Below, piece by piece: positions 24,414-38,301 of a stretch of DNA of 64,000 nucleotides. Location of the stretch: positions 24,520-88,519 of the IMG/VR virus record IMGVR_UViG_3300009026_000007; one strand, given 5' to 3'. The notes under the pieces were generated by a model. It saw only the letters and a list, made by a program, of their open reading frames with translations, did not search any database and had not been told where the DNA came from. The DNA is from a virus. Numbering within the stretch: position 1 is the first letter of the stretch; every line of letters starts with the position of its first letter. Made by a program: the position numbers and the translations under genes.

Positions 24414-25809
24414 TCATTTTTCACTAAGCTCCTTTAAAGCATGTTGGTATCTACCAAACATAATATCAAAAGTATCTTCAACAATCAAGTTGTTCGGTTT
24501 AGGTTCTCCACGAAGGCACATTTTCCCACTCCCATGCTCATTCTCCTCATAGCATTTATGTTTAGGTCTTTTACCACATGTGCATAAGTAGGCATGTCCA
24601 TTATCCATTGATTATCTTCTCCATCCAACAAAAGAGTTGATAAATCAGGTAGCAAGTTAAGCCTAAAGGCCAAATTAAGGAACCAAAAGTTATGAAAAAT
24701 AAATCCTCTTTATTAACATAACCCCAATCCTTCTTACCTTTCTTTACGAGAAACAGAAAAGAGCCTAGACAAGACACCAGATATAAGATAATTGCTAATG
24801 TAATCATTTATTCCTCCAATAATTCTCACACTCAGATTGATAACAACCTTTTGATTTAAAGAATAGCCAATTGTGCTTCATCCCACTACCACATAGCGGA
24901 CATGGATCACCATTGCAGCCTACACGCATTAGTGGTGGCTTAGGCGGTGCAGATGGAGCTTTAGGTCTAATAATACCCTCTGGCATGGGTGTAACTGCTT
25001 TAGCTGTCATTTTATAACACTCCTTTTGTCAATACAAATTTCTTGCTCACCTCGTGCATGGTATAAAACACCACCTTTCTTTTCACAATCCGTATGTTCC
25101 TTCTCTACTTGTCTAATATTCCAAGGCAACCAAATACAAAATAAGATTATAGCGCAAATAATAGCAAATGTTTTCATAAATCCGTCCTATTTAAATTTCT
25201 TTCCACGATTATAACTAGCCTTCTTCCACTTGTACAGTAATCTTTCCTCTTCTTTCTGATAATCGTCAGCATATTTTAAATATTGACTTGCTAGAAGGGT
25301 CGTATCTGGAGATTCTGGGTTAAGGGAGGCTGCTAGCTTTCTGTAGTAGGCTGGAACACTTGGTTGTGGTAGGTCTCTTTTACCGCTCAATGTCCAAAAC
25401 CTCCAACACCCAACATGGATTAATTAATCCTCGTGTTTCTTTCATAACAAGGCTCATAGCTTCTTCTTTGGATGTGTATGTTTGAGACTGTAGGTACTTA
25501 CCAATCCAATCTTTCCAGTTCTGTGCATACTCTTTATCATGCAAAGCGGTAGTAGGCTTTTCAAGATCCATATCAACTCACCTTGTAAATCAAGTAACCC
25601 TTCTCGATAGCCTCAGCAAGCTTTACAAGCTGCATATTTCGCTGTGGAAGGTATGTGTAATACTCACCATCTTTCTTAACGATACTAAATACAGCATTCT
25701 CAACATCTGCAAAGCGAATAGATGAGATTGATTTCAATACAACTCCATCTTGTGCTGTGTAGAACGATGTTACTCCGTTAATTGTACGTACTTTGATGTG
25801 ATTACTCAT
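24414..25809 (-). CDS. cluster of small hypothetical proteins (24414-24608, 24601-24807, 24804-25010, 25187-25390, 25380-25571, 25573-25809)
   Basis: Tightly packed minus-strand ORFs; one is a membrane protein and one a Zn ribbon. Confidence 0.55.
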
Positions 25810-36953: not shown

Positions 36954-36982
36954 TTGACAAATAACTATTATTCATATAAACT
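36954..36982 (+). promoter_or_regulatory. sigma70-like promoter of the ncRNA/tRNA region
   Basis: TTGACA-17-TAAACT. Confidence 0.7.
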
Positions 36983-37022
36983 AAAAGAACTGAATCAGAA
37001 AAGATTTATGAGAAGTCAGATA

Positions 37023-37100
37023 GCCTTCCCCTCTTAGACATACGAGCTTTGAGATTCGTGAGGTTATCGAAAGGTCAGAACACCACTGACGGAAGCCACC
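37023..37100 (+). ncRNA. degenerate tRNA-like element
   Basis: GCCTTCC/GGAAGCC-ACC acceptor-like stem, GTCAG-7nt-CTGAC arm, ACGAG/TTCGT hairpin with CTTTGAG in the loop. Confidence 0.35.
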
Positions 37101-37386
37101 GGTGTAGATGTATTTATACATACTATCTGGTCTGTCGCTGACACAGCCTCTCACTTAACACATTCAATCTTGACGAAGATTGTCTAATTCCCTTAAAGGG
37201 GCTTGAAGAATTCTGACGAGAGTTTAAAGTCTTCCCTTTGTGTGACGGGGAGCAATGAATTATGGGCTGCGCAACAGCCATTAAAAACAAGTAACGGTAA
37301 GACCTTTTCAGCAAGTCTCCCTTTGTGGGGTTTGTTACATTGTCCCTGTTGCGACATCCGGCGACTTGACTAAAGAGGTCTTATTT

Positions 37387-37953
37387 ATGAAAATTGAGCT
37401 AAAAGAGCCTTATTCTTCTGATTGGAAACTTGGTTATTTGAGAATTTCTAGTTTAGATGGAAGAAAAAGATTAGATTTATTTAATTCAAGTACAGAAAGA
37501 ACGACTACAGCTTTTGCTAGATATTTAATGTCAGTTAAAATTGGAAGGTATTTGACAGAAGATGAAGAAGCTGATCACATAGATAATGATGCAACAAATG
37601 ATTCAATAGAAAATCTACAAGTACTTAGTGTAGAGGAACATAAAGCTAAGACTAAAAGATTCGTTGAGGGTCGAATATTTAAAACCTGTGTTTGTAGTTA
37701 TTGTGGTATAGAATTTGAAAGGGAAGTCAGACAAATTAAGTCTGATAAAACCTTGTGTTCAAGGTCTTGTAATGCAAAATACAACAGGGAGTTTGGGTCT
37801 TGGACCGGAAAGCTCAAAAAGCACACCCAAGAAGAAGTAGATAAAATAGTGGAGCTAAGAGCTTCGGGTTTATCAGACTATAAAATATCCGATATAATTG
37901 GTATTCATAGGTCTAAAATACAAAGACTTCGTATTGAGCTTGGTATTAAATAG
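37387..37953 (+). CDS. HNH homing endonuclease with Zn finger and C-terminal HTH
   Basis: ARYLM...ADHIDNDATNDSIENLQVL...H; CxxC...CSRSC. Confidence 0.88.
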   Translation: MKIELKEPYSSDWKLGYLRISSLDGRKRLDLFNSSTERTTTAFARYLMSVKIGRYLTEDEEADHIDNDATNDSIENLQVLSVEEHKAKTKRFVEGRIFKTCVCSYCGIEFEREVRQIKSDKTLCSRSCNAKYNREFGSWTGKLKKHTQEEVDKIVELRASGLSDYKISDIIGIHRSKIQRLRIELGIK

Positions 37954-38039
37954 TCTCTGTCCCTCACGAGGTCTTCTAAGCCTTTGACATTAAACTAGAG
38001 GATGGATGTCACGGAGTTCGATACTTCCAGAGACTACCA
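37952..38039 (+). tRNA. non-canonical tRNA-Arg(TCT): 8/4 fold, no ordinary D-arm, long variable arm
   Basis: AGTCTCTG/CAGAGACT-A-CCA; GAGGT-CTTCTAA-GCCTT; TGACAT/ATGTCA; GGAG-TTCGATA-CTTC. Confidence 0.75.
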
Positions 38040-38046
38040 GTTTCAC

Positions 38047-38291
38047 CCACAATCACTAAGATTAACTCTAAAAAGATTGTGGTATTCACGCTGTCATTTT
38101 CCTCTCCTAAGACAGCACTTAAGATATTCTCTGTTCCTCCTCTCTCTCCTCGCAGAGAATATCTTCTGGCCTTGGATAGATTATACTAGTACTCTCCTTC
38201 TAGTGTAATCTTCGCTAACAGGGCCATTTCTAAATAATCTTGTTGTTCTTTAACGATAATGTCAGTGGTCTGATCAGGATTATTTAGAAAT
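38047..38291 (+). ncRNA. multi-hairpin RNA with CU-rich (anti-SD) loops
   Basis: Five consecutive hairpins, three with TCTCCT loops; G-U wobbles favour the + strand. Confidence 0.65.
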
Positions 38292-38301
38292 TAATAGTAA
38301 G

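Follow-up and report, generated by a model that had tools for sequence, protein, structure and literature searches.

A phage-borne family of D-armless, probable tRNA-Arg(UCU) genes with a predicted pseudoknot between the connector and the variable arm

Locus and genomic context

The window, i.e., the whole stretch of 64,000 nt that we analyzed (positions 24,520 to 88,519 of IMG/VR record IMGVR_UViG_3300009026_000007), is part of an 88.5-kb virus record with a GC content of 39.6% and genes for a terminase, a portal protein and a major head/capsid protein. A first-pass annotation had assumed a Pseudomonas host, which we rejected as unsupported given this GC content and a nearest cultured capsid protein that is only 41% identical. 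On its plus strand the window carries a tRNA-like gene of 88 nt at 37952-38039, located between an HNH homing endonuclease gene and a small-RNA-like element. Direct examination of the sequence matched the earlier reading of this gene base for base, and every element listed in that reading was located. The features of the locus are as follows.

37387..37953, plus strand: HNH homing endonuclease gene (Pfam HNH_3, PHROG 14913), outside the RNA
37952..37959, plus strand: 5′ strand of the acceptor stem, 8 nt, the eighth base G pairing with C38028
37960..37967, plus strand: connector replacing the D-arm, 8 nt only
37962-37965, plus strand: 5′ strand of the pseudoknot helix S1, CCTC, part of the connector
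37968..37984, plus strand: anticodon arm, 5-bp stem (two G.U pairs) and 7-nt loop CTTCTAA
37975-37977, plus strand: anticodon TCT within the loop CTTCTAA, with U33 and A37 present
37985..37990, plus strand: 5′ strand of the variable-arm hairpin S2, TGACAT
37991..37997, plus strand: A-rich loop from the S2 5′ strand to the S1 3′ strand, with conserved TA-AA columns in the family alignment
37998..38001, plus strand: 3′ strand of S1, GAGG, partner of 37962-37965
38002..38006, plus strand: A-T-G-G-A, with GGA a candidate stand-in for G18, G19 and A20
38006..38011, plus strand: 3′ strand of S2, ATGTCA, forming a 6-bp hairpin with 37985-37990 and a 15-nt loop
38013..38027, plus strand: T-arm, 4-bp stem GGAG/CTTC (38013-38016 with 38024-38027), with G53-C61
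38017-38023, plus strand: canonical T-loop TTCGATA
38028-38035, plus strand: 3′ strand of the acceptor stem, followed by discriminator A73 (38036) and an encoded CCA (38037-38039)
38040..38232, plus strand: small-RNA-like element directly after the CCA; in relatives, after a canonical tRNA or a stop codon

The 15-nt loop closed by S2 holds GAGG (37998-38001) followed by ATGG. In the window copy S1 has four pairs versus five in the family, with A37966 unpaired opposite A37997, and the anticodon stem contains two G.U pairs.

The stop codon of the HNH gene (TAG, 37951-37953) shares bases 1-2 of the tRNA, and if RNase P cut at the tRNA 5′ end, the HNH message would lose its stop codon. This gene is an insertion just 5′ of the tRNA, because other contigs have the 3′ end of a tRNA at that place. 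In contigs from a soil run and from an RNA-library run, for example, the sequence from 37948 onward, with the element, is preceded by a short spacer and, before that, the 3′ end of another tRNA, and in one of these two runs an extra 467 nt separate the element from the downstream RNA. A third soil contig, with the HNH arrangement, has 16 differences and 4 gaps over 904 nt, none of them within the 88 nt. Across contigs of four runs, with different flanks, the element shows no listed difference, one piece having one unlisted letter. The RNA-library evidence is one 218-nt contig, containing the end of the neighboring tRNA, the element and 58 nt beyond, which could be precursor RNA or DNA carry-over. 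We ruled out an element that travels with the endonuclease, as four loci with relatives of the HNH gene have no such element downstream.

This phage is a member of an IMG/VR clade whose phages measure 83-93 kb, reached via a 135-aa protein encoded 550 nt downstream (38 loci), and in this clade a variable tRNA island directly precedes a small-RNA-like element starting GTTTCACC. No tRNA is present in 12 of the 26 related records (complete or partial), and up to six are present in the others. A canonical tRNA-Arg(UCU) occurs in 5 of the 38 clade loci; in the relative L055 (L055:2165-2241) it ends in CCA at the same junction with the downstream RNA.

The small-RNA-like element is also found at L022:1249-1440, L006:546-720 and L002:3762-3900. 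A first hairpin is followed by three hairpins with CU-rich loops (CCUC/CUCC motifs), the loops being conserved in relatives and the stem sequences divergent, and the element, which has a weak Rfam match to ar14 (23.6 bits, under the cutoff), could be an anti-Shine-Dalgarno-type regulator. RNAalifold on 12 copies returned no consensus because MAFFT misaligned the variable stems, and a metagenome scan with the first 17-mer of this RNA found 5 true relatives among 80 of the 99 stretches, none with a window-type gene. Other conserved non-coding stretches lie nearby: two of them (window 36985-37255 and 37254-37384) sit behind a strong promoter-like site (36954-36982), neither with an Rfam match, the former in common with L022:815-1040 and the latter a 130-nt leader with long-range complementary ends that is also present in L002, L004, L005 and L017, ahead of different genes. 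Between the small RNA and the 135-aa gene there is a long hairpin with 14-nt perfectly complementary ends (window 38227-38296), conserved in L002 and L005.

Pattern searches, folding energy and gene finders

We searched the window with a composite pattern consisting of a 7/7 acceptor stem, a T-stem with at least 4 of 5 pairs including G53-C61, a TTCRA loop and CCA. The only match was the gene under study, and there was none in 200 dinucleotide shuffles (mean 0.0); without the CCA there were two matches, this gene and a tRNA-Met, versus 0.125 per shuffle. The minimum free energy structure (-23.5 kcal/mol) is the fold given in the earlier reading, and its energy is not significant (z = -0.81, with 37 of 200 shuffles as stable or better).

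The first-pass annotation had also raised the possibility that standard tRNA finders miss the gene, and they do. ARAGORN, run on the window and on the whole 88.5-kb genome, called the tRNA-Met alone, and it called the family gene in 0 of 12 IMG/VR loci (L229-L240) and 0 of 8 deposited-phage loci. Rfam, RF00005 included, gave no match at 37952-38039 at the gathering score or at E up to 10. A blastn search of deposited phages with the window element returned no match, and no exact copy of the 27-mer at the 3′ end of the gene was present in IMG/VR; the window's own record and very close ones possibly lie outside both of these sets.

A family of related genes

Our searches assembled 27 distinct family sequences from IMG/VR contigs, one MAG contig and eight deposited phages. 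A first scan of IMG/VR, using a gapped pattern of the anticodon loop, ATGGAT and the T-loop, returned 38 loci, of which, as read from the parse, 19 were window-type and 2 (L166 and L169) a 7/5 variant, while a second scan with the anticodon left free returned 29 loci, i.e., 18 true members, all with UCU, and 11 chance matches. Running the model R2, built on 15 family sequences including the window copy, over 26 whole records added a member in the record of L178 and a paralogue with anticodon GUA. With R2 the score of the window copy is 94 bits (rank 10 of 27), which is partly by construction since the window is in the training set; the nine sequences found by blastn or by the model score 49-91 bits. 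A Verrucomicrobiia MAG supplied another member, on a binned contig of 13 kb that is rich in tRNAs.

Copies in deposited phages were found via blastn with two members, and all eight loci examined pass R2 with 56-78 bits. These are Escherichia phage Av-05, Salmonella phage Arash, Acinetobacter phages ME3 and KARL-1, Vibrio phages PG07 and D40, Salicola phage SCTP-2 and Nitrincola phage 1M3-16. With the Av-05 copy as the blastn query, 340 deposited records match (Vibrio 301, Acinetobacter 32), eight of them model-checked. Among the 40 matches listed, the annotation under the match is "none" or "hypothetical protein"; in ME3 and 1M3-16 the neighboring tRNA-Met is annotated and the family gene is not, and some matching records have zero tRNAs annotated.

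Family members sit in tRNA clusters. The anticodon is UCU in 26 of the 27 and GUA in one, and 24 encode their CCA. Roughly half of the family carries U73, where A/G73 is usual for tRNA-Arg, and some members carry G73. The phage with the GUA (Tyr) paralogue (L240:1965-2050, minus strand) also has a UCU gene, about 460 nt away; the paralogue has TCTGA/TCAGA as its S1 and no encoded CCA.

Covariation and the predicted pseudoknot

Covariation was scored on a MAFFT alignment of 15 family members that was not fitted to structure (A4), and on an alignment of all 27 sequences fitted to a model that includes S1; A4 is therefore the cleaner test of S1. Over the five helices of A4, 96.1% of cells pair and 18 of 28 pairs have changed on both sides, with a covariation score reached by 0 of 500 shuffles, and sliding the partners by 1-3 columns lowers pairing to 42-54%. 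A covarying family, together with the absence of the composite pattern from 200 shuffles, argues for a structured RNA, not a chance resemblance.

The first-pass annotation had proposed that CCTC and GAGG pair as a D-stem-like pseudoknot, and the covariation check bears this out. S1, i.e., connector positions 4-8 with the five bases preceding N-N-GG, pairs in 74 of 75 cells on A4, with 3 of 5 pairs changed on both sides, and in 134 of 135 cells on the 27 model-aligned sequences, with 5 of 5 pairs changed on both sides; the lone unpaired cell among the 27 is the window's own fifth pair. Pair types at the middle positions are UA/CG/AU/GU and CG/AU/GC/GU, and examples of the whole helix include CCTCC/GGAGG, CCCGC/GCGGG, CCACC/GGTGG, CTTCT/AGAAG, TCTGA/TCAGA and CCAAC/GTTGG. 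The other helices behave similarly on the 27 sequences, with changes on both sides in 8 of 8 acceptor pairs (98.1% of cells pair), and covariation in 5 of 5 anticodon-stem pairs (99.3%) and 3 of 4 T-stem pairs (99.1%). For S2, scored on alignment A6, in which S2 was outside the model, 84.7% of cells pair and one pair has changed on both sides, the misses being five short-arm rows registered one column off.

An 8/4 fold, also part of the earlier reading, is upheld: of the 26 sequences having letters there, 25 pair G8 with the C that follows the T-stem, and the alternative fifth T-stem pair is, by inspection, a C.C or A.C mismatch in all 15 rows of A4. We also looked for homologues with a normal D-arm, and in each of the 27 sequences the D-arm position is occupied by 8 nt only, with no D hairpin. 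GGA follows S1 at a distance of two bases in all 27; the ATGGAT motif was imposed by the search pattern in 18 of these and was free in the nine found by blastn or the model.

We regard as shown, by this comparison of sequences, a pseudoknot, formed with S2, in which S1 joins 4-5 bases of the connector to the 3′ half of the loop of the variable arm. In its topology S1 extends the anticodon stem along the 5′ strand of S1, and the 3′ strand of S1 runs on into GGA. From this we infer that a D-stem and a minimal D-loop would be remade from the variable region.

Comparison with known tRNAs and tRNA-like neighbors

The window gene resembles the canonical tRNA-Arg(UCU) of L055 in its anticodon loop, type of T-loop, encoded CCA, A73 and island position, but differs in having no D hairpin, an 8/4 instead of a 7/5 branch, a long variable hairpin and the pseudoknot. 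Among the features of a canonical elongator tRNA it has the acceptor stem with A73 and CCA, the T-arm, a 5-bp anticodon stem and a 7-nt loop with a purine at 37, and it lacks the D-arm hairpin and recognition by RF00005 and ARAGORN.

Three known groups come close to this architecture. Allo-tRNAs and 8/4 phage tRNA-Ser/His share the 12-bp branch split 8/4 and the long variable arm, and allo-tRNAs, as described in the sections of PMC5389517 consulted, occur in metagenomes and phages with odd anticodons that include AGA/AGG readers. However, allo-tRNAs as presented there keep a D-arm with a long stem and tetraloop, where the window gene has none, and they are serine acceptors, whereas AGA in the window phage aligns with Arg/Lys; the word "pseudoknot" is absent from that paper. 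Since the window gene has no D-arm, we rejected its membership in the allo-tRNAs. D-armless mitochondrial tRNA-Ser (AGY/AGN) likewise has a short connector for a D-arm, and some of these tRNAs carry UCU, but the portion of PMC7609411 consulted describes them as small, flexible RNAs of organelles in which the variable loop is short and the T-arm often reduced; the window gene, by contrast, belongs to a phage genome, is 88 nt long and has a full T-arm, its core being apparently rebuilt by a helix and GGA. Finally, the engineered "mini HisT" of evolved E. coli is D-armless and used by bacterial machinery, and the parts of PMC11551756 consulted report that E. coli HisRS, EF-Tu and the ribosome tolerate an engineered D-armless tRNA and that a PNPase mutation was required in vivo. 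Unlike the window gene, mini HisT is artificial, has no pseudoknot and needs the PNPase mutation.

Examination of the islands also identified a second D-armless UCU type in the window's clade (L022:1166-1248, L006:75-157 and L017:1289-1371), 83 nt long, 7/5 and with U73. In this type CCC at the end of the connector can pair with GGG directly after the anticodon arm, and the AATTGGA that follows is D-loop-like and matches the D-loop of the canonical tRNA-Arg in the clade; the three sequences show compensation at 7 of 21 pairs, and L166 and L169 resemble a related 7/5 form. Model R1, from the second-type alignment A3, did not recognize the window element (4.3 bits), and the two types cannot be aligned by sequence.

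Further tRNA-like genes were noticed. An 88-nt RNA at L060:1178-1265, directly after a canonical tRNA-Arg(UCU), scores 32.5 bits with R2; it combines an acceptor stem, a T-arm and CCA with a 6-bp connector/variable helix that TTGG follows, and its middle arm closes in a tetraloop, with no anticodon loop. Three tRNA-Met(CAU) genes of 89-90 nt (L006:1589-1678, L051:2949-3037 and L052:3033-3122), which ARAGORN calls, combine an unusual T-loop, TGCAATT, with a long D-stem and a variable region that is extended. A 92-nt tRNA-Ile(UAU) at L257:3114-3205 (record G031) is allo-tRNA-like, with a 4-bp D-stem, a tetraloop and a long variable arm, and shares its phage fragment with a pseudoknotted UCU gene. 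Lastly, CCA-ending tRNA-like sequences read by eye at L017:1037-1240 and L161:901-986 (minus strand) are not called by ARAGORN; one of the sequences here has a UGU loop and a non-canonical T-loop, and another a CCA anticodon loop and a long 5′ part.

Decoding role and alternative explanations

The window gene is most likely an intact non-cloverleaf tRNA gene, the arginine isoacceptor UCU of a phage-borne family, and we consider it reasonably probable that it functions as an AGA-reading tRNA-Arg whose core is rewired. In agreement with the first-pass annotation, AGA is common (184 of 17,488 codons, 24% of Arg codons, in 71 ORFs), AGG makes up 17% of Arg codons, and AGA and AGG together 40%. At the 6 AGA codons of the terminase, R or K is the commonest residue at 6 of 6 columns among 100 homologues, and at its 9 AGG codons this holds for 8 of 9 columns, Q being commonest at position 226. 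All six records that hold the gene lack a canonical tRNA-Arg(UCU), among them one with 21 other tRNAs, Arg-UCG and Arg-GCG being two of these. The replacement of a decoder fits these data, because the gene and the canonical tRNA-Arg(UCU) are mutually exclusive in 6 of 6 records and use the same slot. As for its structure, 8/4 tRNAs are functional in E. coli according to the sections of PMC5389517 and PMC7609411 consulted. Arg identity, as given in the portion of PMC9976931 consulted, resides in A20, C35, U36 and A/G73, and the window gene has C35, U36, A73 and an A following GG.

Under this reading, S1 would stack on the anticodon stem at the usual place of the D-stem, and the two G of GGA would take the part of G18 and G19 in docking on the T-loop. 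The A of GGA would be the A20 determinant for the host arginyl-tRNA synthetase, alongside C35, U36 and A73; this candidate A20 doubles as the first base of S2 and so may not be free. The RNA would be excised from the transcript of the tRNA/small-RNA island with its CCA already encoded, would be charged with arginine, and would read AGA, and AGG by wobble. The D-armless gene would stand in for the canonical tRNA-Arg(UCU) found at this position in relatives.

A possible, if unlikely, alternative is a tRNA mimic that is made and folded and acts outside translation. One role could be to titrate, as a decoy or sponge, a host nuclease or defense protein that recognizes the anticodon loop of tRNA-Arg(UCU); another could be that of a processing signal at which RNase P and 3′-end cuts free the neighboring small RNA and destroy the HNH message. 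Covariation proves a structured RNA, not charging, and several observations suit a mimic: the small RNA begins at the base following the CCA, and relatives show it immediately behind other tRNAs; a cut at the tRNA 5′ end would take away the HNH stop codon; U73 is found in roughly half of the family; related islands contain tRNA-like RNAs that lack an anticodon loop (L060:1178-1265); and published irregular tRNAs, the allo-tRNA(UAU) species in the sections of PMC5389517 consulted, are inactive in E. coli translation. Yet a processing signal needs the acceptor/T half alone, and here the anticodon stem covaries and its loop is kept; in some relatives, moreover, the small RNA follows a stop codon with no preceding tRNA. 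The mutual exclusion with the canonical tRNA-Arg(UCU) in 6 of 6 records, in a slot which that tRNA occupies in relatives, also speaks for a decoder.

It is very unlikely that the gene is a working tRNA charged with an amino acid other than arginine, e.g., with serine via the long variable arm, and that AGA/AGG is recoded or misread. Its 8/4 branch and long variable arm are those of the serine-charged allo-tRNAs (PMC5389517, sections consulted), and many members have U73 or G73, but serine has a frequency of at most 0.02 at the six terminase AGA columns (100 homologues), where R or K is commonest, which makes serine recoding unlikely. Further, the variable arm would be held in the pseudoknot, and the GGA motif with C35 and U36 fits Arg identity as set out in the part of PMC9976931 consulted.

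That the window copy is a decaying tRNA-Arg(UCU) pseudogene which has lost its D-arm, in a clade where tRNA loss is frequent (12 of 26 related records have no tRNA), is highly improbable. The copy is one S1 pair short and has the two G.U pairs in its anticodon stem, but its other stems are intact, it scores 94 bits, and the D-armless layout is the family norm, with compensatory changes in all helices over 27 sequences. The pseudogene reading is made unlikely by this family-wide covariation and by the 88 nt that, apart from the one unlisted letter in one piece, are unchanged across the contigs of four runs with different flanks. A chance resemblance to a tRNA in non-coding DNA, with which a folding z-score of only -0.81 would agree, has a negligible probability given 0 matches to the composite pattern in 200 shuffles, and is refuted by the covarying family.

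Novelty and significance

The opening of a 2024 paper describes all known bacterial tRNAs as cloverleaves (PMC11551756), and a 2020 review of non-canonical tRNAs, in the portion consulted, places D-armless tRNAs in mitochondria only (PMC7609411). We found no published description of a pseudoknotted D-armless phage tRNA in the full-text literature, a search to which subscription journals and supplements were out of reach. The kind of RNA is known, i.e., a tRNA, and its architecture is new; its function as a working tRNA-Arg is probable, as judged from the comparative evidence.

A broader proposal, which we consider doubtful as a whole, is that phages of Gammaproteobacteria and of uncultured hosts use natural non-cloverleaf elongator tRNAs in which the variable arm, by way of a pseudoknot, supplies a new D-stem, G18/G19 and A20. 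This altered core would be retained because it lets readers of AGA (and of UAY and AUA) escape host enzymes or defense nucleases that recognize a normal core, and these tRNAs would still be charged and used by host translation.

What the family offers is a D-armless, pseudoknotted shape that is conserved by compensatory change, including in culturable phages of E. coli, Salmonella, Acinetobacter and Vibrio, and with it a natural and readily testable case of how much of the tRNA core translation needs. It exposes a blind spot in tRNA finders and in censuses of phage tRNAs, and would provide a new scaffold for orthogonal tRNA design. It may also bear on how phage tRNAs fare against tRNA-targeting defenses.
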